Positions 1 through 55,058 of a DNA stretch of 64,000 nt are shown one piece after another (the stretch's first letter is position 1; each line of letters begins with the position of its first letter). The position numbers and the translations under genes were made by a program. Origin of the DNA: an uncultured Gammaproteobacteria bacterium (lineage in GTDB: Bacteria > Patescibacteriota > Patescibacteriia > Magasanikbacterales > UBA922); NCBI GenBank assembly GCA_964550845.1, contig CAZKAD010000002.1, forward strand, positions 11,377 through 75,376. The letters run 5' to 3'. Below the pieces are notes generated by a model that was not told the DNA's origin, made no database searches, and saw only the letters and a program-made list of their open reading frames with translations.

Positions 1-128
1 TTTCCGCTTTGTCTTAAAGTAAAATCGGGTGATATTTCTCGAGGATATTCGGTGTTAATCAAAAATGCAATCGTAATTGTTTAACATTAAATAATGGTTG
101 TTTTCTCTTCGGAGAAAACAAATCAAAA

Positions 129-3005: not shown

Positions 3006-3282
3006 CTTTTCTTTCGGGAGAAAAGTCTTTTTTACGAACTTGACAAGTTTGAACTTGTGTTTTCTTCGAATATCGATCCCAAATTTCAGGCGGACAATCC
3101 TTTTTCGAGAGAGAAGATCTTACGGAATCAGTCAATTTGACTGAATATTCTCCAGCAGAAAGAAATTGTGTATTTTGCTCTTTCATCAGTCGGATCATCG
3201 TCTGACGAATTTTCGTCTCTTTCGCTTGAAGGGCGGCAATTTTTTGTTTCAATTGATACCAATCGCGAAGGAGATCGCTCAT
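2956..3282 (-). CDS. Hypothetical protein (charged, coiled-coil-like)
   Basis: ATG at 3280-3282 fused to the repeat core (GGTTAAAATG). The 3' end overlaps the kinase 5' end by ~30-50 nt in another frame. Confidence 0.45.
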   Translation of the reverse strand: MSDLLRDWYQLKQKIAALQAKETKIRQTMIRLMKEQNTQFLSAGEYSVKLTDSVRSSLSKKDCPPEIWDRYSKKTQVQTCQVRKKDFSPERKDDNGSSEDESDRNTNR

Positions 3283-3711: not shown

Positions 3712-3787
3712 ATTTCGAATCTTTTCTTTCCTTTTCGAGGAAAGAAAAAAATTAATCTTCAGTCAATGATTTCAATAATTTCAATAG

Positions 3788-4910: not shown

Positions 4911-5022
4911 TGATCGAGATTCAATATTAAAAGTAAATTTAATTACTTTCCTTGAAGATTGAGAAAAAAGATCAATTTTCACATCTCGAAAGATGGGAAA
5001 TGTTTTAACAATGTAACGAGAA

Positions 5023-5625: not shown

Positions 5626-5712
5626 TGGAGTTTTGAAGTTCGAAAATGTTTTGTTTTTCTGTATGATATTGACAATAATAATCAATTTTCTTATCTCGAA
5701 AGATGAGAAAGA

Positions 5713-6385: not shown

Positions 6386-6427
6386 AATTTTTACATTGAA
6401 TATTGAATATTGAATATTGAATATTGA
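6386..6427. repeat. 8-bp tandem repeat (attgaata) x5 in the divergent promoter region
   Basis: attgaatattgaatattgaatattgaatattgaat. Confidence 0.85.
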
Positions 6428-6481
6428 ATTTTATCATACAAGAAAATTGATCTCCCTTCATTTGGAAATAAAAGAAAAGGA

Positions 6482-7879
6482 ATGTCAACTGAAGGGGAAA
6501 AAGAGAATGTCGAAGAAATTAAAATTCCCGAAGACGAATCAAAGATTGACGATGAAAAGATCGAAGAAGAGAAGGTTAATGATGAAAATTCGGAGAAACA
6601 TTATTCCGATTTGAAATCGGCTATCTTGAAAGGACATAATGTTTTTCTCACTGGTCCCGGAGGAACAGGTAAAAGTTACCTCATTCGGCGTCTGGTCAAA
6701 GAACTTGCCACTAATGCATACTATCAAAATATTGCTCTGACCGCAACTACTGGAGTGGCAGCTGAAAATATTCAAGGATGTACTCTTCATTCATGGGCTG
6801 GGATCGGAATTGGTAATCGATCTTATGATTATTACACAACTCGACTTCAAAAAGATGAAAACAAACGAGAATCGTGGACAAAGTGCAATCTTCTCATTAT
6901 TGACGAAGTTTCGATGATGGGAAAGAAATTGTTCCATTTACTCGACCACATCGGAAAGGTACTTCGAAGATCAATTCGTCCATTTGGAGGAATTCAACTA
7001 ATTTTTTGTGGGGATATGTGTCAACTTCCTCCAGTTGAAGATGAATATTGTTTTACTTCAGGATTGTTTGATAAATGTCAATTTTATTTTATCAAACTCA
7101 CTCATCCATGGAGATTTGTATCAGACTTGGAATATTTTCAGCTTTTGTTGAGAGTTCGACTTGGTGAGCAAACTCCACAAGATATTGCTCGTCTTGAAAC
7201 GAGAAAATGCTCGATGTTTCGAGACTTGGGAAATGAAGAAGGTGCTCTTCGTCCAACTCGCCTCTTTTCACGAAAAATGGATGTTCAAGAAATGAACATT
7301 GAAGAATTGAATAAATTGCCTGATCAAGAATATCATTATCAATCACATGATTCACTGATTCAGAAAAATCAAAAAGTCAAAATTAATCCTGAATATTACG
7401 AACAATTAATGGACAATCAACATCATCGTTTGACTCGATTGAAAAAAGGTGCACAAGTCATGTTAACTCGAAATATTTCGATTGAGCGAGGTTTAATTAA
7501 TGGATCACGAGGAGTGGTACTCGAATGTCATGATTCAACTGTGATGGTCAAGTTTCGAAAATGCGAATATTTAGTCACACCTTCTACCGTTGAGTATGAA
7601 GATGAAAATTGTAAATATCGACGTGTACTGATGCCTCTTATTCTTGCCTGGAGCATGACCATTCACAAATCTCAATCGGCAACTCTTGATTATGTGATTG
7701 CCGATCTTGGAACAAGTTTATTCTCGAAAAATATGGGTTACGTGGTCTTATCAAGATGTCGTTCTCTTGATTCGATTTTTCTGAATAATTTATTGCCCGA
7801 ACGAATTGAATGTGATCCATTGGCAAAAGAATTTGAGAAAAAGATTGATCGACAACTCGAGAAACAAAAGACGAGTTAA
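6482..7879 (+). CDS. PIF1-like 5'-3' DNA helicase (SF1B)
   Basis: Walker A LTGPGGTGKSYL, Walker B IIDEVSMM, and PIF1-like C-terminal motifs. AAAATTGA at 6443-6450 (-39). Confidence 0.85.
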   Translation: MSTEGEKENVEEIKIPEDESKIDDEKIEEEKVNDENSEKHYSDLKSAILKGHNVFLTGPGGTGKSYLIRRLVKELATNAYYQNIALTATTGVAAENIQGCTLHSWAGIGIGNRSYDYYTTRLQKDENKRESWTKCNLLIIDEVSMMGKKLFHLLDHIGKVLRRSIRPFGGIQLIFCGDMCQLPPVEDEYCFTSGLFDKCQFYFIKLTHPWRFVSDLEYFQLLLRVRLGEQTPQDIARLETRKCSMFRDLGNEEGALRPTRLFSRKMDVQEMNIEELNKLPDQEYHYQSHDSLIQKNQKVKINPEYYEQLMDNQHHRLTRLKKGAQVMLTRNISIERGLINGSRGVVLECHDSTVMVKFRKCEYLVTPSTVEYEDENCKYRRVLMPLILAWSMTIHKSQSATLDYVIADLGTSLFSKNMGYVVLSRCRSLDSIFLNNLLPERIECDPLAKEFEKKIDRQLEKQKTS

Positions 7880-7922
7880 ACTTGCACAGGATTAGTTAAA
7901 CATCTCTCTTCTTGGATAAAGA

Positions 7923-8285
7923 ATGGAGACTTTTCAAACTTGTTTTAATCAATGTTCACTTTCGGCTGACAGTTTGACTGAATTACTTTCAATTGATTCA
8001 AATCAATTCGAAGTTTTGAAAGTCCACGAATGGACTGTCAATTTGTCAAAAACATCAGTTAAACTAAAATGTCAGTCAATTGAATTGTATTGGAACTATT
8101 CAATCGAAGAAGTTGAAATTTTTATTTTCTTTGAACTACTTGCTTTACAGGCACAAATTAAAAGATATTCGAGTCAGTTTCTTCTCTCTTCATCAAGCAA
8201 TTTTTCGGGAGATGCGTCTCTCTCCTCTTCCGGAAGTTCATTTTGCCTCGTCACGTCTTCAACAGAAGAATCACTGTCTCTGTAA
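7923..8285 (+). CDS. Doubtful hypothetical ORF
   Basis: Its 3' end overlaps minus-strand ORF 8174-8689 by ~110 nt. No recognisable motifs. Confidence 0.2.
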   Translation: METFQTCFNQCSLSADSLTELLSIDSNQFEVLKVHEWTVNLSKTSVKLKCQSIELYWNYSIEEVEIFIFFELLALQAQIKRYSSQFLLSSSSNFSGDASLSSSGSSFCLVTSSTEESLSL

Positions 8286-8689
8286 TCAGGATCTTGATCA
8301 TAATCATTTCTTGGATCTTCATCGTCATGACAAAAATCGTCATCTTTGTGTTCAAGCCCATATTGACGAGCTTGATTGAAAGTTTTCTGATCAATCTTCA
8401 ATTCAAGTGAAAAATTAGTCAAAGAAAGTTCCCTGTTGTTCGGTTCGCGAATGAAACATTCAGGACAAAGATCAAAATCGCATTCAACACAGGAAAACAT
8501 TCCGTAAATCTTTTCGGTTCTGTTGATGGAGCGAATTAATAGGTAATCACGTTGACAGCAGTCGCAAATTCGGTACCAAATACTTGACGAATGAGTCGAA
8601 GGGCATTGAATTCGATCAACGTTGAAGAAGAATTTATGTGGATGATTTGGGTAATTGTACAAAGTGGGGGAAATTGTATGAGTTTCCAT
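8174..8689 (-). CDS. Cys-rich (zinc-finger-like) protein with acidic tail
   Basis: CDCC...CVEC...CPEC cluster, acidic C-terminus. ATG fused to the repeat array (GGTTAAATGG). Confidence 0.45.
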   Translation of the reverse strand: METHTISPTLYNYPNHPHKFFFNVDRIQCPSTHSSSIWYRICDCCQRDYLLIRSINRTEKIYGMFSCVECDFDLCPECFIREPNNRELSLTNFSLELKIDQKTFNQARQYGLEHKDDDFCHDDEDPRNDYDQDPDYRDSDSSVEDVTRQNELPEEERDASPEKLLDEERRN

Positions 8690-8870
8690 TTAACCAGTCT
8701 CGAAAAGACGTTTAACCAGTCTCGAAAAGACGTTTAACCAGTCTCGAAAAGACGTTTAACAAGTCTCAAAGAGACGTTTAATTAATTCAAAGAACGTTGT
8801 GGAAATAATATTCTCCGAAAAGAATATCATTTTTAACCAATTCAAAAAGTCTTGAAGAGACGTTAAATTA
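8690..8870 (+). repeat. Tandem array of 22-bp units CCAGTCTCGAAAAGACGTTTAA x4, plus one degenerate distal copy
   Basis: Direct reading. The last unit supplies the ATG context of gene 8174-8689 (GGTTAAATGG on the minus strand). Confidence 0.9.
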
Positions 8871-9159
8871 AAATTAGTCGAATTATATCTTCCTCTAAAA
8901 TTTGATCTGCTTCAAATATAGCTGTCCTTAACAGCTGAATAAACCAAGTACGAATAACAATCAATCCTTCTTCCGATAAAACGACTTCAATTTTTGACTG
9001 TTTATCAAATAAAACAAGAGTTAATCCATGTGTCCGATCTTCAATTTGATGACTGCTAAACAATTCGCTCTTTTTGGCTTCATTTACAAGCTTTTCGAAC
9101 GAAATTGCTAAAAAGAGGGAATTTTGAAATGACTCTTGTTTTTGCTGAACAAGGTCCAT
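8863..9159 (-). CDS. Hypothetical protein
   Basis: AAAATTGA on its own strand at -51 (9210-9217). Confidence 0.45.
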   Translation of the reverse strand: MDLVQQKQESFQNSLFLAISFEKLVNEAKKSELFSSHQIEDRTHGLTLVLFDKQSKIEVVLSEEGLIVIRTWFIQLLRTAIFEADQILEEDIIRLILI

Positions 9160-9274
9160 GATAAACTTCCTTTAGTTGATTAAGACGATTTTAAGATTGA
9201 AAAAAATAATCAATTTTGCTTCATCATTACAAAATTGATTTTTACTTTGTGATATTGGTTCGAAAAATAAACTA

Positions 9275-9682
9275 ATGAAGTTTCAAACTGTCTACGGAGT
9301 TTTAATCTCAGAAACAGATTTGTTATCTTCTGTATCTCCGAAGAATGAGAGCAAATATCATCTTTCAATAGCTCAACTTCAGCCAATATTTAATCGGCGC
9401 GATTCGATCGGTGATGCAACTATAGAAAAATATTTTCCGGGTTTGCTTCATTTGATCAAAGAATGGGAACTTCGTTTACTTCCGGCACCAAACTATATGT
9501 GTCCTCAAAATCGGCCACATTATGTTTTCGGTCTCTTCTCAGAGAATATTAACTTTCATATTTGCCCAACAGAAGAAATGAAACAAACATTAGTGATGTT
9601 GAAGAAATATTTCAATATCAATCAGGAATGTAAATATTTTTACTTTAATCCGAAGGCGTTTAACCACTTCAATAAGTCTTGA
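9275..9682 (+). CDS. Hypothetical protein
   Basis: AAAATTGA at -37. The last 10 codons are encoded by a GTTTAACC-hairpin repeat unit. Confidence 0.5.
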   Translation: MKFQTVYGVLISETDLLSSVSPKNESKYHLSIAQLQPIFNRRDSIGDATIEKYFPGLLHLIKEWELRLLPAPNYMCPQNRPHYVFGLFSENINFHICPTEEMKQTLVMLKKYFNINQECKYFYFNPKAFNHFNKS

Positions 9683-9695
9683 AGATACGTTTAAG
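9657..9695 (+). repeat. GTTTAACC-hairpin unit overlapping the 3' end of CDS 9275-9682 and leading into the ATG at 9701
   Basis: GGCGTTTAACCACTTCAATAAGTCTTGAAGATACGTTTAAG. Confidence 0.6.
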
Positions 9696-9700
9696 TAAAA

Positions 9701-10297
9701 ATGATTTTTTCTCTCTGCGGAGATGAAAAATTCAAAGCTCCCGACATTTTCGTCAAAAAAGATTCATCAATGTTGTTCTATTTGATTGAACGTGGATCTC
9801 GAAAGATGCTCATTTCACTTGAGTCTGCAAATCAGGAACTACTTGATATTTTCCATCTCTTCTTTTCGAATAGCAGAAGAAAAACCCTGATTTCGGAGGC
9901 AAAAGATGTTTCTGGAAAATACTTCCATCTTTATTCTCGTACATTTCTCGAGGATGGACAAAGAACAGATGAATTTCATCTTTTCTTTGATGATGTGAGC
10001 GATCATCCTCAACGACAGTGGGGTAATCAAATTCCAGGATTAAATACCTACCAAAAAACATTTTTCTGGGAACTTTACATCCGAGGACCAATTTCTCAAA
10101 TTGTTAAGTTGTCTCCTCAAGAGATGAACGTGCCTGTTCCATCTCCCTTCTTAACACAGCAATCAAGCTATCGAAAGGAACCTGTGCATTCTTCAACGAA
10201 AAAGCAAGATTATTTGCCTTATGGAGATACTCTTTCGATGCTTACCTTAAGATCTCCAGATCAAAGAAGAGTGGTTCGAATTCGACCAAGAGCATAG
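9701..10297 (+). CDS. Hypothetical protein
   Basis: Start context GTTTAAGTAAAAATGATTTT. Confidence 0.5.
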   Translation: MIFSLCGDEKFKAPDIFVKKDSSMLFYLIERGSRKMLISLESANQELLDIFHLFFSNSRRKTLISEAKDVSGKYFHLYSRTFLEDGQRTDEFHLFFDDVSDHPQRQWGNQIPGLNTYQKTFFWELYIRGPISQIVKLSPQEMNVPVPSPFLTQQSSYRKEPVHSSTKKQDYLPYGDTLSMLTLRSPDQRRVVRIRPRA

Positions 10298-10305
10298 TTA
10301 GAAAT

Positions 10306-10334
10306 ATTCCTTTCTTTTCGAAGAAAGAAATTAA
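10306..10334. terminator. Palindrome CTTTCTT-TTCGAA-GAAAG between convergent genes
   Basis: Direct reading. Confidence 0.45.
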
Positions 10335-15102: not shown

Positions 15103-15125
15103 ATTTTCTCTCCTCGAAAGGAGAT
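15103..15125. terminator. Palindrome TCTCC-TCGAAA-GGAGA between the D5 stop and the convergent small gene
   Basis: Direct reading. Confidence 0.45.
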
Positions 15126-15129
15126 AAAA

Positions 15130-15429
15130 TTATTCACTGAGTTGTTCATAAATGTTCCAAATAACCTCTTTCGTGTTACCATTAGGAACATCAATATCAA
15201 TAGTCATCATTTCGATGCTAACGCTGCTAGAATAGCGAATTCTGACTTTTGAATAATCGGTTGGATGTTCATAAGCAGAATTAAAATCATCTTTCCGAAT
15301 CACTAGTTGATTAGCACAGTTCAGAAATTTGCTTCTTAATTGAGAAGATGTCATATCTTTTTTCTCTTCATCCGAATTTTCCCACGTTCGTTTTATAAAT
15401 TCTTGTGTTTCTTCCCATCCTTTGGGCAT
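15130..15429 (-). CDS. Small hypothetical protein
   Basis: First ATG is at 15427-15429. The track start is TTG. A C9 homopolymer plus PETSA-repeat ORF lies upstream in the +1 frame. Confidence 0.4.
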   Translation of the reverse strand: MPKGWEETQEFIKRTWENSDEEKKDMTSSQLRSKFLNCANQLVIRKDDFNSAYEHPTDYSKVRIRYSSSVSIEMMTIDIDVPNGNTKEVIWNIYEQLSE

Positions 15430-15564: not shown

Positions 15565-15601
15565 ATTCAATCAATTTTCGTTCCTCGAGAGGAAAGAAAA
15601 A

Positions 15602-19177: not shown

Positions 19178-19254
19178 CAAATTTTTTTACCGACAAATCG
19201 ATGCAAATAATTGATAAAAAATTATTTTAAAAAAATCATCCCTCTCGGAAAGAG

Positions 19255-21066: not shown

Positions 21067-21246
21067 CCAGTCTTAAAGAGACGTTTAAAACATTGAAAAT
21101 TATCTCTCTTTTCGAAGAGAGATAATAAATTTGACCTGGATATAAAGATTATTCAATAAAATTATTGTGTAAATGTATTTGTTGCGGGAAATATTTAGGG
21201 GCAAAATCATGATGATTTGTATTTAAAAATAATTGTTATTTTAAAA

Positions 21247-21975: not shown

Positions 21976-21995
21976 TATCTCTCTTCGAAAAGAGA
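21976..21995 (+). promoter_or_regulatory. Perfect palindrome TCTCTCTT-CGAA-AAGAGAGA 4 nt upstream of ATG 22002
   Basis: Direct reading. Confidence 0.5.
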
Positions 21996-22001
21996 GATAA
22001 A

Positions 22002-22613
22002 ATGAACTTTTTCGAGATTATTACACAAATGGATAAATATCTCCCTCAAACGATTAATCGTGTTCAACAAATCATCGAAGTTGCTAACGCTAAAACATTA
22101 GAGATCAAAAGTAAACCAGAAGTAAAGAAAATTATTTTTGCTGTTGAACATTCAATTGAGTTTGTTAAAGAATTGCTTGAAGAAAAGACCACGAAAAGAA
22201 TAAGAAGGAAACAACATCAAGCTTTACTCGAAAAAATTCGATCTAGCAATGATGATACTTGTTTGGAAATGGCCGATCGCCGAAGATCAATTCAAGCCGT
22301 TCTTCTTGCTCTTCGTTATGGAAGATACATTTCATCACTCGAAGCAATTCAGATTGCAATTAAGTATGGGCAATTTACTTTTTGTAAACTCGAACTTGAA
22401 ATGTGGGCAGAAATTCCTTCCATTCCTGTAGATTATTACTACAAAGCAGTTGAACATGCAATTTACTTTTCCAGATATCGTTTACTCCGCCTTTTATTCA
22501 CTCAACATTGTCTCGATTTTGAACATTTGTTTCAACATGCAAGACGATATTATCAAAAGTTACATCGGTCTGGACACCATTGTCACAGAAAAATTCAGAA
22601 TTATTTGAGATGA
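22002..22613 (+). CDS. Hypothetical protein
   Basis: Perfect palindrome ATCTCTCTTCGAAAAGAGAGAT 4 nt upstream of the ATG. Confidence 0.45.
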   Translation: MNFFEIITQMDKYLPQTINRVQQIIEVANAKTLEIKSKPEVKKIIFAVEHSIEFVKELLEEKTTKRIRRKQHQALLEKIRSSNDDTCLEMADRRRSIQAVLLALRYGRYISSLEAIQIAIKYGQFTFCKLELEMWAEIPSIPVDYYYKAVEHAIYFSRYRLLRLLFTQHCLDFEHLFQHARRYYQKLHRSGHHCHRKIQNYLR

Positions 22614-23756: not shown

Positions 23757-23924
23757 ATGCCATACGATCAATTTACTCAAGTATTGAAAGTTTTGATGCG
23801 GATGCATTCACCTTTGTTTCCTTGTGTAACCGCGAAGAGACTTATGATTCGAACTTCAAAACCATTGTTGAGAAGATGGACTATTCGTCGAGGTTATCGA
23901 CATCGAGTGAGTAAAGAAAAGAAA
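23757..23924 (+). CDS. Candidate small basic (Arg/Lys-rich) protein, 55 aa, below the ORF-track cutoff
   Basis: ATG about 30 nt downstream of palindrome ATTCTT-TTCG-AAGAAT. Product MPYDQFTQVLKVLMRMHSPLFPCVTAKRLMIRTSKPLLRRWTIRRGYRHRVSKEKK is strongly basic. Sits in an otherwise unexplained 275-nt gap. Confidence 0.3.
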
Positions 23925-23953
23925 TAACCTTTCGAGGTGATTTCACGATTTCA

Positions 23954-25005: not shown

Positions 25006-25497
25006 ATGTTTGGTTCGAATTCAGTTTTGAATAATTCTCTAAATATTCACGCGAAAGCTAGTCGAGCTTATAAGTCTAAGTCTAAAAATTATACTTCTCG
25101 CCGGTGTTCATTGCTGGAAGCGAAAAAAGAATATCTCGAAGAGATCTACGATGATATTCTCGAACAAAATTTAGTTTCGCAGCAAATTATAGAACAAGAA
25201 GAACAAATTATTCGTCGATTAATTCTTGACGATGTCGGTGAAAAATTGATGCCTCGTGTAGGAGCTTGTTCAATTCAGAGGAAAGGAATGCATCTCGGAG
25301 AAATAGTTATTACTCTTGATCCTTTCGACAAAATTTTCCTCGAAATGAAACATGTCGAGAAAATTGTCGACAAACTTCGACAAAAATATATTGCCAATTG
25401 GGCTCAAGAAAAGAAGATATCATTTGGATATGGAGTTCACGCCGTAACCGATGGCAAGATTTCTTTTACTGCATCGTTGCATTGTTATACTGATTAA
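25006..25497 (+). CDS. Hypothetical protein
   Basis: AAAATTGA at 24929-24936 (-70). A 10-bp-stem palindrome follows the stop. Confidence 0.45.
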   Translation: MFGSNSVLNNSLNIHAKASRAYKSKSKNYTSRRCSLLEAKKEYLEEIYDDILEQNLVSQQIIEQEEQIIRRLILDDVGEKLMPRVGACSIQRKGMHLGEIVITLDPFDKIFLEMKHVEKIVDKLRQKYIANWAQEKKISFGYGVHAVTDGKISFTASLHCYTD

Positions 25498-25525
25498 TAA
25501 ATCTCTCGAGATTTATTATAACTTT

Positions 25526-26299: not shown

Positions 26300-26381
26300 C
26301 CCTTTGGGTATTTTATTTACTCAAAATTTGTTTAATTGGTTCCCTTTTGGATGGTAAAAATAACTTTCCTCGAGAGGAGAG

Positions 26382-26969
26382 TTAATTCTTCGCAGCGGTA
26401 GCAGTAGCAGTGTAGTGATCTTCAATGTCGGATAAAATCAGATTGATCAAAGTCAATCCTTCAATTTCTCTTTGTCCTCCATATTCTGGATACTGAAAAT
26501 GTCCCGCTGATCGTATGATTTGTTCATAAGAAGCAAACATTGGAAATCGAACATTCGTAACAATGGAGATTCGAATTTTAAGATCATTATCCAGAATGGC
26601 GTTAGCCAAATCTTTTTCAGTTGAGACTTCATTCTCGACATATTTTTGATATGCTTGAGCTTCTTCTTTGAAAGTGAGAAAATTGACGTTCACATTCGAT
26701 GCTTTGAACCAACGATACATTACATGATCGAAAAGGTTATAAGTTTCGTGATCATCATTGTCGTCGTCATTACGATCTCTCGTCTCAATCTGAAGTTGCT
26801 TTGTCTTTTTGGCGCACAATGCAAACCGAGATAAAACGACGTCAAATATTTCCTTATTGATGATGAGGTCTGGTACAACTGTCGGTTCACCATCATTGTC
26901 AACCACAATTTTACCCAATCGATCTTTTCCTTCAAGGAAGTAAAGAGAAATTTTAGTCATCTTACTCAT
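26382..26969 (-). CDS. Hypothetical protein
   Basis: Clean ATG start. No motifs recognised. Confidence 0.5.
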   Translation of the reverse strand: MSKMTKISLYFLEGKDRLGKIVVDNDGEPTVVPDLIINKEIFDVVLSRFALCAKKTKQLQIETRDRNDDDNDDHETYNLFDHVMYRWFKASNVNVNFLTFKEEAQAYQKYVENEVSTEKDLANAILDNDLKIRISIVTNVRFPMFASYEQIIRSAGHFQYPEYGGQREIEGLTLINLILSDIEDHYTATATAAKN

Positions 26970-38906: not shown

Positions 38907-38945
38907 TCAAATCATTTCAATATTCTTTTCCTTTTGAGGAAAAGA

Positions 38946-39740
38946 TTAACCATCAATTTCCATTGGTTTCAAGGTCCTTTGGGGCGGGTTCAACTCGGGT
39001 GATGCGGAAGGTGAGGGAAGTCGATAATTTTCATGATAGAATTTAGATACATTTCGATCATTCCAGTTTTCCGGAGCAATGTGATAAGCATTCAAAAGAT
39101 TGGAAATTTCAAAATAGCTAAGAGGTTCTCTTATTCGAAGAACTTTTACATTTTCAAAGAAAAGTTCAATTGGATAATTAAATGCATCAGATGAAAGTCG
39201 AAGCATACTCTTATTCAGTTGTTCTGCTGACGTATCAACTGTCCGACAAAGATGAATGAATTCTGCTATAATTTCAGTCTTCGGATCATTTAATTTCTGC
39301 TCAGTCTTTCGATAATGAAGTGCGTTACCTACACTTCTTGATAAAATTTGAGACATTTGTTCAGCGGCGTACAATTTCATTTTAAATTCTTCAATATCCT
39401 TTTCAAGTGAATTTTTCGAAATCACGAGATTATCTTGAACAAAGATGAATACAACTCCCTGGCTGGCAAGTTGAGATGCAAAATTGTAGCCAAGTTCTCG
39501 ATTACGTGAATATCTATCTACAGAAATACAAACGAATAAACCATGTATAATATTTACTTTACTCAACAACGGTGGAAGTTGTCGGAATGCCGAAGCAGCT
39601 TCGGCGATCACTGAAATCTCCATCTTCAACTCAGGGAAATGACTACAAACCCATTCTCGGCAGATCTTTTCTTGAGCATCTAAACTCTTTCCAAGTAATT
39701 GATTTCTGGTTGAAACACGCGTGTAAATGACACATTGCAT
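38946..39740 (-). CDS. Serine recombinase (resolvase/invertase catalytic domain)
   Basis: N-terminal VIYTRVSTRNQLLGKSLDAQ (catalytic Ser) and downstream VDRYSRN motif. First ATG used (MQCVIY); the track start is TTG. Confidence 0.8.
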   Translation of the reverse strand: MQCVIYTRVSTRNQLLGKSLDAQEKICREWVCSHFPELKMEISVIAEAASAFRQLPPLLSKVNIIHGLFVCISVDRYSRNRELGYNFASQLASQGVVFIFVQDNLVISKNSLEKDIEEFKMKLYAAEQMSQILSRSVGNALHYRKTEQKLNDPKTEIIAEFIHLCRTVDTSAEQLNKSMLRLSSDAFNYPIELFFENVKVLRIREPLSYFEISNLLNAYHIAPENWNDRNVSKFYHENYRLPSPSASPELNPPQRTLKPMEIDG

Positions 39741-41987: not shown

Positions 41988-43374
41988 CTTTCATTGATAC
42001 AAATAAATGATCAAGAATTTTGTTTGCAACTCGATATCCCGAACGTAAAGCGCCTTCCATGTATCCATAAAAGACTGGATCAGTGTGTTCGCCTGCAATG
42101 TAAGGAGATGTACTCTTTTGATAATATTCAACAAATTTCATCTGCCCAGGAGGAATATAAGAATATCCTCCTTCAATCAAGGGATTTTGATTCCAATTTT
42201 CAGTATAAGAATACTTTGTCCAATAGGGACAAAGTCTTTGAATATCTTGTGATTCTTTGAGGTCGGAATAAAAGTTGACTAACACTCGGTCATTTTTATT
42301 CATTTCACTGAAAGGAAAATAATCACCTCGATTCTCGGTCGCTTCCCAAATTTCTCCTTGAGGAAGTGCTAAAACGTTTGGCGATCGAGAAAATCGAATC
42401 CAGTCTCGGTGACCATAGATATATAATGTTTTAATAACTGGACCAATTGGCAACGCCGGTATAGATAATCCAGAAATTTTATGATATTGAGTCGGTGGAA
42501 TGGCAAGAATGAGGTAATCATAACTAACTACAATCTCTTTTCCTTCAAAGTCAAAAGTACATTTCTTTTCATGTTCATTGACGGCTTTGAGTTTGTGGAG
42601 AAGACGGACAAAGCTACGTTGTAATAGTTTTTCGACCATAAATAAATTACCTTCAGCACAACGATAAACTTGTTCAGTGTTCCAGAAACTTTTTCCATCT
42701 AAGTTAGGAGAACCACCTTTAACCTGTGTTAAAATAGAGAGATAACTTTGTTGACTTGGATCTGCAAGATTATCACATTGAAATTGTTTCTTAATGTATT
42801 CTTTTCCAAGATTCGACAATTCACATCGTTCAAGTTTATCTCCGAGGGATAAAGTATCTGGCATGTTCCACGGCTCGAATGGATTTGAAAGTTCTTTGCT
42901 ATCTTCAGCAAGCATATCTCGAAACTTTTTAATATCTTGTTCAATTTGCTTTTCTTCTTCCTTTGATAAAGCTTTGTCATTCAAATAAAGATTGTTTTTG
43001 CATCCTTGGGCAGCATAATAGGTTTCAGGTGTAACTAGAGTGAAAGAAAGTTTCAATCGATGAGCAAGAGTCAACCACATGGCATGATTTGATCCGATTA
43101 ATTCAGCTCCAAGTTCAACTTGAGGAACATCATAAATCGAAGCTGTCTTAACTCTTCCACCAACTCTTTCGGCAGCTTCATAAACGTGAACATTTGGAAG
43201 AGCAGACAAAAAGTAGGCAGCAGCTGCTCCAGCTAGACCGGCTCCGACAATGACAATCTTTGGTATAGTTCCGAGACGATTTGCTTTCTCTTGAACGTGA
43301 TCGAGATAACTGAGGTCAATTTTAGCCATCGGGGATATTTTCCCTGGCTCTCGAAGTGAATACCATTTATTCAT
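41980..43374 (-). CDS. Flavin-containing amine oxidase (MAO/PAO/LAAO family)
   Basis: Dinucleotide-binding IVIVGAGLAGAAAAYFL, YEAAERVGGRVKT, and C-terminal YIAGEHTD...GYMEGALRSGYRVANKIL. An 8-bp-stem palindrome abuts the ATG. Confidence 0.8.
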   Translation of the reverse strand: MNKWYSLREPGKISPMAKIDLSYLDHVQEKANRLGTIPKIVIVGAGLAGAAAAYFLSALPNVHVYEAAERVGGRVKTASIYDVPQVELGAELIGSNHAMWLTLAHRLKLSFTLVTPETYYAAQGCKNNLYLNDKALSKEEEKQIEQDIKKFRDMLAEDSKELSNPFEPWNMPDTLSLGDKLERCELSNLGKEYIKKQFQCDNLADPSQQSYLSILTQVKGGSPNLDGKSFWNTEQVYRCAEGNLFMVEKLLQRSFVRLLHKLKAVNEHEKKCTFDFEGKEIVVSYDYLILAIPPTQYHKISGLSIPALPIGPVIKTLYIYGHRDWIRFSRSPNVLALPQGEIWEATENRGDYFPFSEMNKNDRVLVNFYSDLKESQDIQRLCPYWTKYSYTENWNQNPLIEGGYSYIPPGQMKFVEYYQKSTSPYIAGEHTDPVFYGYMEGALRSGYRVANKILDHLFVSMKEF

Positions 43375-43378
43375 TCCT

Positions 43379-43400
43379 TTTCTTTATAGAAAAGGAAAAT
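43379..43400 (-). promoter_or_regulatory. Palindrome CCTTTTCT-ATAA-AGAAAAGG abutting the ATG of the amine oxidase gene
   Basis: Direct reading. Confidence 0.5.
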
Positions 43401-43799: not shown

Positions 43800-43821
43800 T
43801 TCTTTTTAAAGGGAAGAAAGA

Positions 43822-43876
43822 AGTTTAACCAATCCTCTGGACGTTTAACCAGTCTTGGGGATGTTTAACCACTTTA
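43822..43876 (+). repeat. Three tandem GTTTAACC units (20-bp period) upstream of gene 43443-43799
   Basis: GTTTAACCAATCCTCTGGACGTTTAACCAGTCTTGGGGATGTTTAACC. Confidence 0.7.
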
Positions 43877-49166: not shown

Positions 49167-49192
49167 CTGTTAAATAATTGAATCTTTTCGAA
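49167..49192. terminator. 11-bp-stem palindrome AATTGAATCTT-TTCG-AAGATTCAATT between convergent RPB10 and RING genes
   Basis: Direct reading. Confidence 0.5.
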
Positions 49193-49211
49193 GATTCAAT
49201 TCTTGTTGTTT

Positions 49212-49640: not shown

Positions 49641-49732
49641 CGATGGTACTTTTCCTTTGGACAAGAAAAATAATTTTTAACTAATGATGTAATTGATTTT
49701 TCTCTTCTCGAAAGAAGAGAAAAATAATCATC

Positions 49733-49868
49733 GTTTAAACGTCTCTTCGAGACTGGTTAAACGTCTCTTCGAGACTGGTTAAACGTCTCTTCGAGACTGG
49801 TTAAACGTCCTTATAGGACTCTTTGAAATGATTAAACGTCCTTATAGGACTCTTTGAAATGATTAAAT
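49733..49868 (+). repeat. Array of GTTTAAACGTCTCTTCGAGACTG x3 plus GTTAAACGTCCTTATAGGACTCTTTGAAATGAT x2; the TAA stop of gene 49863-50540 lies inside the last unit
   Basis: Direct reading. Hairpins GTCTC-TTC-GAGAC and GTCCT-TAT-AGGAC. Confidence 0.9.
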
Positions 49869-51579: not shown

Positions 51580-51653
51580 CTTTCTTTTCAAAAGAAAAAA
51601 CTGATTTTCTTTTGCGACTTCAATGGAGTGAAATCAAGTTTTTTGATCGAAGA

Positions 51654-52883: not shown

Positions 52884-52943
52884 TTCCGATCTTAAAATAA
52901 ATAATGCTCAATAATGCTCAATCACGTTTCGACGTGATCGAAG

Positions 52944-53027
52944 TTTTTAACAAGTCCTTCAAGACGTTTAACCACTTCAGAGAGTCCCGAAGGATGTTTA
53001 ACCAATCTTGACGAAATCGTTTTAATC
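52944..53027 (+). repeat. Three degenerate GTTTAACC-hairpin units between convergent genes
   Basis: GTTTTTAACAAGTCCTTCAAGACGTTTAACCACTTCAGAGAGTCCCGAAGGATGTTTAACC...GTTTTAATC. Confidence 0.65.
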
Positions 53028-54988: not shown

Positions 54989-55058
54989 TTCTTATTGTTG
55001 AAAAATTGATTTCTTCACTTCGAGTAGTGAAGAAAATTCAAACATTTCAAACATCTCA

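Follow-up and report, generated by a model that had tools for sequence, protein, structure and literature searches.

Stem-loops at gene ends in an uncultivated giant virus: a probable lineage-specific version of the 'hairpin rule' for transcript 3' ends

Introduction

The palindrome at 21976..21999, in which a pyrimidine-rich arm and a purine-rich arm enclose a CG core, lies 2 nt before an ATG and belongs to a class that recurs between genes throughout this DNA. Do such elements mark the starts of genes or their ends? An earlier note proposed a protein-binding DNA dyad that, set between the AAAATTGA box and the ATG, would give a promoter module of three parts. We find that the hairpins track gene ends and not starts, and they are therefore most likely an mRNA-ending signal of the 'hairpin rule' type.

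Results

Source and gene content of the window

The window (the whole 64-kb stretch analysed) is part of the genome of a giant virus (NCLDV) that is uncultivated and carries genes for its own RNA polymerase. Polymerase genes in the window are RPB2, RPB5 and an RPB1 fragment; a D5/C962R-type primase, an SNF2 helicase and an A32 ATPase are encoded as well. Homologues of RPB2, D5 and A32 were found only on metagenomic or assembly contigs (GCA_020049755.1, GCA_020047435.1, SRR10036081, ERZ7245xx and JGI 3300003430), and RPB2 alone had no match in viral_contigs. The GGTTAAACGTC repeat forms an array at 34330-34464; searched for as a pattern, it had no hit in viral_contigs and only an unrelated contig of 42% GC in metagenome_contigs. 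Rfam and tRNA scans returned no matches. There are 38 copies of the AAAATTGA box, of which 18 are in sense and at most 110 nt upstream of an ATG. Some 'ATGs' belong to box-like AAAAATGA or AAAATGAA sequences and do not start a gene, and the canonical MPEGPEV N-terminus of the Fpg/Nei gene starts at codon 13 of its ORF.

A class of about 33 hairpins

We count about 33 members in the window, strongly non-random against shuffled sequence, which bears out the earlier estimate of more than 30. About 16 of the 20 coordinates listed at that time are clear hairpins with stems of 9-14 bp; 19241 (4 bp plus a bulge) and 62528 (6 bp) are weak, 51580 has 8 bp with a competing purine-first pairing, and 36640 is mainly a purine-first palindrome outside the pyrimidine-first class. 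Two quoted strings match exactly (28372 and 21977) and the quoted CCTTTTCT-ATAA-AGAAAAGG corresponds to 43374-43397 read on the minus strand, while TTTCTTTCCTCGAAAAGGAAAGAAA is absent from the window. Overlooked were the elements at 98, 3006, 4977, 5687, 15575, 21099, 26361, 29816, 49696, 55010, 56008, 56958 and 60971. Stems contain 3-5 G-C pairs and are followed on the 3' side by either an A-run or a promoter box, and predicted RNA folds range from -8 to -16 kcal/mol (-11.9 kcal/mol, z -3.8, for the focal hairpin). Direct fusion to a promoter box was seen in 13/33 hairpins: in type A (five cases) the 3' arm overlaps a AAAATTGA-type box that follows the hairpin, and in type B (eight cases, at 21976, 30882, 34303, 55010, 57512, 61833, 62528 and 63404) the hairpin lies just after a promoter-like box. 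The members are as follows (loops in lower case).

98..121: TTGTTTTCTC ttcg GAGAAAACAA; 7 nt before the A32 ATPase ATG, 13 nt past the stop of a co-oriented gene that lies upstream (visible in locus L018)
3006..3025: CTTTTCT ttcggg AGAAAAG, weak, score 7; adjoins the kinase gene ATG
3722..3748: TTTTCTTTCCT tttcg AGGAAAGAAAA; tandem (-) spacer, 39 nt past stop, 10 nt before ATG; 100% conserved in L012/L013
4424..4449: TTCTTTCCTTT cgaa AAAGGAGAGAA; 14 nt past stop, 0 nt before the NIF phosphatase ATG
4977..5000: TTTCACATCT cgaa AGATGGGAAA; type A, 3' arm (minus sense) continues into AAAATTGA
5687..5710: TTTCTTATCT cgaa AGATGAGAAA; 2 nt past stop, type A fusion with AAAATTGA
8016..8041: mixed arms, cgaa loop; convergent spacer
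8803..8832: AAATAATATTCT ccgaaa AGAATATCATTT; 30 nt past stop
10306..10331: ttcg loop; common to two convergent genes, 8 and 9 nt from their stops
15103..15130: 3 nt past the D5 primase stop; convergent spacer
15575..15600: 1 nt past the RPB2 stop; type A, 3' arm overlaps AAAATTGA
21099..21126: ATTATCTCTCTT ttcg AAGAGAGATAAT; 32 nt past the stop of the RPB1 C-terminal gene
21976..21999 (focal): TATCTCTCTT cgaa AAGAGAGATA; 57 nt past the methyltransferase stop, 2 nt before the ATG at 22002; type B, preceded by AAAAATGA
23921..23944: weak, ttcg loop; 9 nt past stop, convergent spacer
25495..25518: TAATAAATCTC tc GAGATTTATTA; overlaps or adjoins both convergent stops
26361..26384: overlaps the stop of 26382-26969(-)
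28371..28396: TTTCTTTTCCTC tc GAGGAAAAGAAA; 32 nt past stop, type A fusion with AAAATTGA
29058..29083: near-identical to 28371..28396, after the next, paralogous gene; type A
29816..29845: near-identical to 28371..28396, after the third paralog; convergent spacer
30882..30907: type B (minus strand), directly after box-like AAAAATGA; upstream of a second in-frame ATG
34303..34329: sole strong member in a divergent spacer; minus-strand order AAAATTGA, 2 nt, hairpin, ATG
38924..38945: TCTTTTCCT tttg AGGAAAAGA; between convergent genes
43374..43397: TTCCTTTTCT ttat AGAAAAGGAA; 45 nt past stop, adjoins ATG
49176..49201: mixed arms, ttcg loop; 10 nt past stop, convergent spacer
49696..49725: 13 bp, ATTTTTCTCTTCT cgaa AGAAGAGAAAAAT; tandem (-) spacer, fold z -4.5
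52921..52938: weak, ATCACGT ttcg ACGTGAT; convergent spacer
55010..55035: type B, directly after AAAATTGA (55002-55009); 21 nt past stop, 23 nt before ATG
56008..56031: TTTAATTCTCC ga GGAGAATTAAA; 28 nt past stop
56958..56981: TTTAATTCTCCG CGGAGAATTAAA, almost the same as 56008..56031, at the opposite end of gene 56111-56950; convergent spacer
57512..57537: type B with AAAAATGA; 20 nt past stop, 4 nt before the RPB5 gene ATG
60971..60998: 10 nt past the SNF2 helicase stop; convergent spacer
61833..61862: 14 bp, type B, directly after AAAATTGA, minus strand; 47 nt past stop, 32 nt before ATG
63404..63427: TTTCTTTTCT cgaa AGAAAAGAAA; after AAAATGAA, 8 nt upstream of the true Fpg/Nei start (~63396)

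As in NCLDVs that follow the hairpin rule, hairpins are enriched in intergenic over coding DNA: perfect stems of 9 bp or longer have densities of 3.07/kb and 0.11/kb, respectively. The 7.4 kb of intergenic sequence holds 43 hairpins of all kinds where dinucleotide shuffles give 5.3±2.1 (about 8-fold), and the excess is steeper for pyrimidine-first hairpins (20 versus 0.8±0.9, about 25-fold) than for purine-first ones (3 versus 0.6). The pattern Y5-(TCGA/TTCG/CGAA/CTCG/CGAG)-R5 has 41 sites, 25 of them in the intergenic 12% of the window, against 13.2±3.4 in shuffles; reversing Y5 and R5 gives 16 sites, none intergenic. A Mollivirus-like record used as negative control had 0 hairpins in 40 spacers.

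Hairpins follow gene ends

The orientation of neighbouring genes separates ends from starts, and here the class sides with ends. Pyrimidine-first hairpins are present in 8/13 convergent spacers, about 16/42 tandem spacers and 1/14 divergent spacers (convergent versus divergent, Fisher p=0.004); CG-core hairpins from the window and its relatives gave 18/66 versus 1/66 (p=2e-5, with ends counted per gene and each spacer thus twice). Counted per gene end, they accompany 13/30 convergent and 16/42 tandem 3' ends, 10/42 5' ends with a co-oriented upstream neighbour and 1/28 5' ends with a divergent one. The class is thus associated with stop codons, and its excess on the 5' side vanishes when the upstream neighbour is divergent, the same logic as in Fig. 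4 of PMC5413956.

These counts bear directly on the proposal of a dimeric viral transcription factor bound to a DNA dyad between box and ATG. Several features are in its favour. Eight hairpins begin 0-2 nt after a AAAATTGA, AAAAATGA or AAAATGAA box in the correct orientation, and at 34303-34329 this arrangement occurs in a purely 5' (divergent) context. The order box, hairpin, ATG described earlier holds for only 8/33. In five others the hairpin lies upstream of the box, which overlaps its 3' arm, and the majority of genes with a AAAATTGA box have no hairpin. The observation that palindromes abut start codons is literally true of the positions, but the excess is marginal: 4/16 lie at most 4 nt from an ATG, where 1.4 are expected (p=0.04). 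The class occupies 8/13 spacers that contain no promoter and is missing from 13/14 of those that contain only promoters. The palindromic immediate-early promoter motif of Medusavirus, likewise intergenic, near start codons and in a giant virus, shows the opposite distribution, being found in 22/115 divergent and 0/88 convergent spacers (PMC8557863). Divergent enrichment and convergent absence, as expected of a palindromic promoter or operator, are not what the window shows, and we consider the promoter dyad improbable. Because convergent and tandem spacers carry the class and only 1/14 divergent ones do, abutment to an ATG would mostly reflect the upstream gene's terminator in a very short spacer.

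Could the element instead be a 5'-UTR RNA hairpin that chiefly controls translation or stability of the downstream mRNA? Several members lie 0-10 nt before an ATG, and their purine-rich 3' arm fits the A-rich, purine-rich last 10 nt before starts (R=0.64-0.67), the only purine-rich zone that remains when hairpins are masked; moreover, arms made only of pyrimidines or only of purines should be unable to contain an ATG on either strand. Yet the class populates convergent spacers and not divergent 5' regions, its distance to the ATG varies from 0 to 158 nt, and the ATG within the Fpg/Nei box, upstream of the hairpin, would have to stay unused. That unused ATG suggests that transcripts begin after the box, possibly inside the hairpin. 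A primarily 5'-UTR role is in our view unlikely to be correct.

Some observations also count against reading the hairpins as 3'-end signals. A hairpin of score at least 8 is found at only about half of tandem 3' ends, no protein-coding gene reads into the divergent spacer at 34303-34329, and the weaker hairpins at 51580 and 19241 likewise lie in divergent spacers. In the eight box-hairpin-ATG cases, moreover, the element would also lie in a 5' UTR if transcription starts before it.

Arm polarity and loop sequence

The hairpins are constrained beyond pairing, as the earlier note had surmised: arm polarity is fixed, loops are nearly always YUCG or CGAR, and three tandem paralogs with only 29-43% protein identity carry nearly identical hairpins. 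In the 5' arms C/(C+G) is 0.84 (p=2e-10) and the pyrimidine fraction 0.79, compared with 0.58 and 0.51 in 74 other giant-virus (GVMAG) loci. A model of pure structure does not predict fixed polarity, which is a further point against the 3'-end reading in its simplest form, and a bias beyond pairing would also suit the promoter dyad. Background composition was ruled out as the source, as with hairpins masked the 3' flanks are not pyrimidine-rich (R=0.51-0.56). Imperfect stems, inspected by eye for G·U wobble asymmetry, were too few and revealed no pattern.

The loops also hint at RNA rather than DNA. Read in the transcribed sense, tandem spacers contain 14 YUCG-type and 4 CGAR-type loops (p=0.03), a modest bias that includes two paralogous copies and stands at 11:3 (p=0.057) for hairpins of score at least 8. 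Such dependence on the direction of transcription would be unexpected for a symmetric DNA dyad, and favours a role at the RNA level.

Conservation and natural experiments

Between strains that are 87-95% identical, 44/44 and 160/164 stem positions are unchanged, whereas other intergenic DNA is 79% and 89% identical (p=7e-5 and 2e-4), and on this comparison the stems are under purifying selection. Strong conservation between strains would be compatible with a protein-bound dyad, but at orthologous sites in different lineages it is pairing, and not sequence, that is kept. For example, the D5 primase gene has a hairpin 0-12 nt past its stop in six lineages with differing sequences, in which 58/60 pairs are Watson-Crick and 9/10 positions show at least two Watson-Crick pair types (pairs were counted directly, as MAFFT alignment of the six introduced gaps). 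In L015 one substitution repairs the sole mismatch of this hairpin, and the divergent 5' spacer of the D5 gene has no hairpin in any of those lineages. Hairpins are also kept at the RPB2, RPB1b and Vps62 orthologs. RPB2 of L002 has one 2 nt past its stop, and in a 67% relative, where RPB2 and D5 are convergent, each has its own 0-2 nt past the stop. In another natural experiment, a hairpin adjoins the NIF phosphatase ATG only where the upstream neighbour is co-oriented, and relatives with a divergent neighbour have none. Each related lineage has its own flavour of hairpin sequence.

These comparisons also speak to a third alternative, in which the palindromes are selfish or neutral repeats (REP- or MITE-like), or DNA cruciforms concerned with replication, recombination or restriction-modification at TCGA, and have no role in the transcript. 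Copies do look alike, gene 56111-56950 is flanked by near-identical hairpins, and TCGA is common in the genome. The units are, however, just 22-30 bp long and diverse in sequence, their positions are linked to stop codons, their stems are more constrained than the surrounding spacers, and they persist at orthologous 3' ends across lineages while their sequences differ. No insertion or deletion of whole units was seen between strains, except for one replaced element upstream of A32. Near-identical copies, presence/absence polymorphism and independence of gene ends, the hallmarks of REP- and MITE-like elements, are thus not what these hairpins display. TCGA as a restriction or methylation target was ruled out by its equal density in intergenic (9.1/kb) and coding (8.8/kb) DNA. 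We regard this alternative as very improbable.

Comparison with known 3'-end signals

The Mimiviridae 'hairpin rule', in which a palindrome serves as 3'-end and polyadenylation signal, reportedly goes back to work by Byrne in 2009. The signal was treated by Priet 2015, and an RNase III-like enzyme cuts within the hairpin (PMC4402537). Such signals are also present in Pithovirus, Sputnik and Marseilleviridae (PMC5413956; PMC8557863), and Fabre et al. assigned the Marseilleviridae palindromes to the 3' end of the upstream gene (PMC5413956), just as enrichment at starts in the window is owed to the upstream gene. As in these systems, the palindromes belong to a giant virus that has an RNA polymerase of its own and a AAAATTGA-type box; they are intergenic, lie just past stops, are common to convergent genes and retain structure and not sequence at orthologous sites. 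By contrast with those systems, our virus has stems of only 9-14 bp (Mimivirus stems have 13 bp or more, those of Megavirus 15 bp or more and those of Pithovirus 10 bp or more; PMC8557863), a pyrimidine-rich, G-poor 5' arm with a purine-rich 3' arm, a YUCG/CGAR tetraloop, lineage flavours and frequent promoter-box fusions. The A/T-rich arms without nucleotide consensus described for Mimivirus are not found among the window hairpins; with arms that are 79% pyrimidine and loops of YUCG or CGAR, we therefore call them a variant of the hairpin rule. Neither RNase III nor poly(A) polymerase was detected by Pfam among the ~66 ORFs of the window (64 kb out of a genome of 223 kb or more), or among the called genes of related loci.

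Bacterial Rho-independent terminators are likewise hairpins of the nascent RNA at gene ends, and palindromes between convergent genes can work both ways. The window stems differ in not being G+C-rich and in having no U-tract directly after them; nearby T-runs are promoter boxes of the next gene. Other short stems with a defined loop act as 3'-end processing signals: yeast Rnt1p is an RNase III that reads AGNN tetraloops, and the histone mRNA 3' stem-loop is comparable. Rnt1p is also discussed in PMC4402537. The likeness is one of analogy and the YUCG/CGAR consensus differs from that of Rnt1p substrates, but a loop consensus as such suggests that a protein may read the loop.

Discussion

Our analysis indicates that the hairpins probably mark the 3' ends of viral transcripts at the RNA level, as the form that the giant-virus hairpin rule takes in this lineage. 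They are enriched between genes, tied to 3' ends and conserved, they turn over with pairing kept, and their loops are biased in strand; from these patterns we infer action in RNA, the enzymes concerned and the alternatives of termination or of cleavage and polyadenylation. We propose that once the viral RNA polymerase has passed the stop codon, the nascent RNA would fold into a stem of 9-14 bp capped by a YUCG (or CGAR) tetraloop, which would trigger either termination or cleavage; in the latter case an RNase III-like enzyme would cut the RNA and polyadenylation would follow, as it does in Mimivirus. Since the element is a palindrome in the DNA, a single copy could serve both genes of a convergent pair, and because tandem spacers are only ~40-110 nt long, the upstream gene's hairpin would be packed against the AAAATTGA-type box of its downstream neighbour.

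A further possibility, which we put forward tentatively, is a cassette in which a sequence-read hairpin does double duty as terminator and promoter. Here a lineage-specific factor might read the YUCG tetraloop together with the fixed polarity of the arms, C to G, which would account for a hairpin flavour in each lineage and for identical hairpins in diverged paralogs. Where the hairpin is fused to AAAATTGA, the pyrimidine arm may supply the T-rich spacer of the promoter, and the purine arm its initiator or the 5' leader; downstream transcripts starting inside the palindrome would then carry only half of it and so escape the termination signal of the upstream transcript.

Our finding of transcript 3'-end hairpins, if correct, extends the hairpin rule to an aquatic NCLDV clade that is uncultivated and known solely from metagenomes and unannotated contigs of public assemblies. 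What is new is that the signals have strict arm polarity, a tetraloop consensus, lineage flavours and direct fusion to AAAATTGA. Polarity, loop consensus and flavours offer a handle on the still poorly defined factor that reads such hairpins, and hairpins together with box-embedded ATGs could help to revise where genes begin and end in giant-virus genomes assembled from metagenomes. The terminator-promoter fusions would represent regulatory signals compressed into spacers of 40-80 nt.

Virus, gene content and relatives

The window (64 kb, 36% G+C, ~72 ORFs on both strands, 88% coding) carries genes for RNA polymerase (RPB2, a C-terminal RPB1 fragment and RPB5), a D5/C962R-type primase-helicase, SNF2 and PIF1 helicases, an A32-like ATPase, a NIF phosphatase, several kinases, a uracil-DNA glycosylase (UDG) and Fpg/Nei; it derives from a nucleocytoplasmic large DNA virus that encodes its own transcription apparatus. 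A 223.5-kb NCBI contig carries an identical RPB2. Pfam scans of the ORFs found neither an RNase III nor a poly(A) polymerase gene within the 64 kb. The relatives compared, all metagenomic or assembly contigs, comprise strains at 87–95% nucleotide identity (L012–L016), a syntenic relative whose RPB2 is 67% identical (L002–L005) and three lineages with ~50% D5 identity (L006, L008 and L010).

Gene content is rearranged even at strain level: in L012/L015 (GCA_020049755.1 contig), window 6497–10328 is swapped for a kinase, PRA-PH, a collagen-like gene and others. The window holds a serine recombinase (resolvase) gene (38946–39740, minus strand), and the PIF1 and D5 genes of some relatives contain inteins or homing-endonuclease domains (e.g. 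L008 5913–8279).

Intergenic hairpins

The earlier note had reported more than 30 palindromes with a pyrimidine-rich first arm. This total holds at ~33, including ~13 sites it did not list, and ~16 of its 20 listed sites are clear 9–14 bp hairpins; those at 19241, 36640, 51580 and 62528 are weak or another kind of element, and one quoted motif string does not occur in the window. Perfect stems of at least 9 bp number 3.07 per kb in intergenic against 0.11 per kb in coding DNA. The 7.4 kb of spacers contain 43 hairpins, compared with 5.3 ± 2.1 in dinucleotide shuffles, of which 20 are pyrimidine-first (0.8 in shuffles) and 3 purine-first (0.6). The pattern Y5-CG core-R5 occurs at 41 sites, 25 of them intergenic (control 13.2 ± 3.4), and its converse R5-CG core-Y5 at 16 sites, none intergenic (control 11.1 ± 3.4). 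TCGA itself is present in 567 copies, equally dense in coding and intergenic DNA (~8.9 per kb, well above the ~3 per kb that rough arithmetic gives from base composition); CpG observed/expected is ~1.0–1.2.

Hairpins lie mainly at gene 3' ends

We grouped spacers by how the genes on either side are oriented and defined the class by pyrimidine-first arms and/or a TTCG, CGAA, TCGA, CTCG or CGAG centre, with a score of at least 8. The class does lie between convergent genes, as first noticed: 8/13 convergent spacers carry one, compared with 1/14 divergent spacers (Fisher p = 0.004). Counted per gene end, hairpins occur at 13/30 convergent and 16/42 tandem 3' ends, and at 10/42 tandem and 1/28 divergent 5' ends, so that those before start codons are essentially confined to genes with a co-oriented upstream neighbour. 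The same deconvolution led Fabre et al. to assign Marseilleviridae palindromes to the 3' end of the upstream gene (PMC5413956). The true palindromic promoter of Medusavirus, in contrast, has the mirror-image distribution, in 22/115 divergent and 0/88 convergent spacers (PMC8557863). The proposed abutment to ATGs barely exceeds chance, with 4/16 hairpins within 4 nt of an ATG against 1.4 expected under uniform placement (p = 0.04), and the apparent link with start codons is incidental, arising from very short tandem spacers and from fusion to the next promoter. Hairpin 34303–34329 is the single clear exception to the 3'-end pattern.

Fusion to the promoter box

The early-promoter octamer of Mimiviridae, AAAATTGA (PMC4402537), is present in 38 copies (e.g. 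12217, 27678, 28394, 34332 on the minus strand, 55002), 18 of which lie in sense 20–93 nt ahead of ATGs, in most cases with a T-run after the octamer. Of the 33 hairpins, 13 are fused to a box that is oriented like the downstream gene.

Hairpins fused to the promoter box
4977, 5687, 15575, 28371, 29058: type A (5 cases), in the order stop, hairpin, box
21976, 30882, 34303, 55010, 57512, 61833, 63404, possibly 62528: type B (8 cases), box, 0–2 nt, hairpin, with the ATG 0–32 nt on

The three-part module of box, hairpin and ATG described earlier corresponds to type B (8/33). In type A the box follows the hairpin, and the final 3–4 A's of the purine arm are the start of AAAATTGA.

The box variants AAAAATGA and AAAATGAA include an ATG, so first-ATG gene calls are misled and ORFs overextended. 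In Fpg/Nei (62560–63432, minus strand) the Pfam domain begins only at residue 13, with the sequence MPEGPEV, the canonical N-terminus that includes the catalytic proline. This places the true start at the second ATG (~63396), with the hairpin upstream, and transcripts must start downstream of the box ATG. On the model of poxvirus early promoters, transcription of the downstream gene could start inside the hairpin, which would leave its mRNA without an intact one.

A divergent spacer upstream of PIF1 helicase (6395–6429) holds tandem 7-nt repeats (ATTGAAT) that create four or five box-like AATATTGA copies, with two units fewer in L012 and L013.

Conservation across strains and lineages

Between strains, hairpin stems are identical at 44/44 and 160/164, against 79% and 89% for other spacer DNA (p = 7e-5 and 2e-4), and in L015 a single substitution gives the D5 hairpin an A-T pair in place of its only mismatch. 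A hairpin 0–12 nt after the D5 primase stop is present in 6/6 lineages with differing sequences; 58/60 pairs are Watson-Crick, with at least two Watson-Crick pair types at 9/10 positions. The divergent spacer on the 5' side of D5 has no hairpin in any of the six. RPB2 and D5 converge in the 67% relative, each with a separate hairpin 0–2 nt past its stop. In the window the NIF phosphatase gene has a co-oriented upstream neighbour and a hairpin adjoins its ATG; in L006 and L010 the neighbour is divergent and the ATG has no adjoining hairpin. The gene following the focal hairpin (22002–22613) has an L002 ortholog at 40% identity without the methyltransferase gene upstream; there, the RPB1b stop has the strong hairpin, and all that is left ahead of the ATG, at 6 nt, is a vestigial TTTCTCGAGAAA.

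Three tandem paralogs without a Pfam match (27760–29805; 192, 198 and 187 aa, 29–43% protein identity) are each followed by a nearly identical hairpin, which implies sequence-level constraint or concerted evolution. Hairpins 56008–56031 and 56958–56981, at either end of gene 56111–56950, are also almost identical (TTTAATTCTCC..GGAGAATTAAA), and this gene could be a cassette inserted or duplicated at a terminator.

RNA or DNA level

With 2-nt loops normalised, effective loops read YUCG or its complement CGAR. In the transcribed sense of tandem spacers, YUCG outnumbers CGAR by 11:3 at a score of at least 8 (p = 0.057) and by 14:4 (p = 0.03) once score-7 hairpins and site 98, counted as tandem because its upstream gene was recovered in L018, are added. 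The symmetric protein-binding DNA dyad proposed earlier predicts no such strand bias, whereas an RNA tetraloop does; the bias is suggestive, not decisive. Predicted RNA fold stabilities are -8 to -16 kcal/mol. Judged from sequence, the palindromes are most likely hairpins of the hairpin-rule type that form at the 3' ends of transcripts, where either termination, or cleavage and polyadenylation, would occur.

Other repeated elements

A second intergenic element, GGTTAAACGTC(T/C)YTTCGRGACT, has 27 matches against 0.7 expected and forms tandem arrays with a period of 20–22 nt.

Positions of the GGTTAAACGTC element
8707–8761, 29170–29224, 34361–34449, 43820–43870, 44226, 49733–49840, 52963–53003, 61003–61035: arrays
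9655, 11002, 21930, 24908: single units

Each unit can fold into a short stem capped by a UUCG-like loop, and units have no consistent orientation relative to flanking genes; in L012–L014 one replaces the hairpin upstream of A32. In the same virus, ~3.8 kb before the window begins (L018 3072–3130), a perfect palindrome with 27-bp arms fills a whole 53-nt divergent spacer plus both start codons (CATCG...CGATG); it is a mirror-image bidirectional 5' region, different in kind from the terminator hairpins.

Arm polarity and lineage flavours

A palindrome whose first arm is pyrimidine-rich has that order whichever strand is read, so arm polarity belongs to the element itself and does not depend on the choice of strand. 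Background composition was rejected as its cause: once hairpins are masked, 3' flanks show no richness in pyrimidines, and purine-richness is limited to the last 10 nt before ATGs.

Composition of hairpin 5' arms
Window: C/(C+G) 0.84 (p = 2e-10); pyrimidine fraction 0.79
67% relative: C/(C+G) 0.83; pyrimidine fraction 0.79
~50% relatives: C/(C+G) 0.75 (p = 1e-4); pyrimidine fraction 0.54
74 other GVMAG loci (via RPB2): C/(C+G) 0.58 (0.51 without four loci); pyrimidine fraction 0.51

Published hairpin-rule signals are described as A/T-rich with no conserved sequence (PMC4402537; PMC8557863), in contrast to the strong arm polarity of the window class, which is a trait of this clade and not general among giant viruses. 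Flavours differ by lineage: a Y-arm with a YUCG/CGAR loop in the window, a Y-arm with CACA, CGUG or UGCG in the 67% relative, and TAATAAC(C/A)C-loop-G(G/T)GTTATTA, often with the stop codon within, in L006 and L010. The latter two share a repeated, sequence-specific family of intergenic hairpins, TAATAACCC..GGGTTATTA, and L079 (IMG/VR GVMAG-M-3300023179-138) has six copies of another, CATTTTAATYCTA tgy TAGTATTAAAATG. Sequence-flavoured hairpins may thus be commoner in giant viruses than 'no sequence conservation' suggests.
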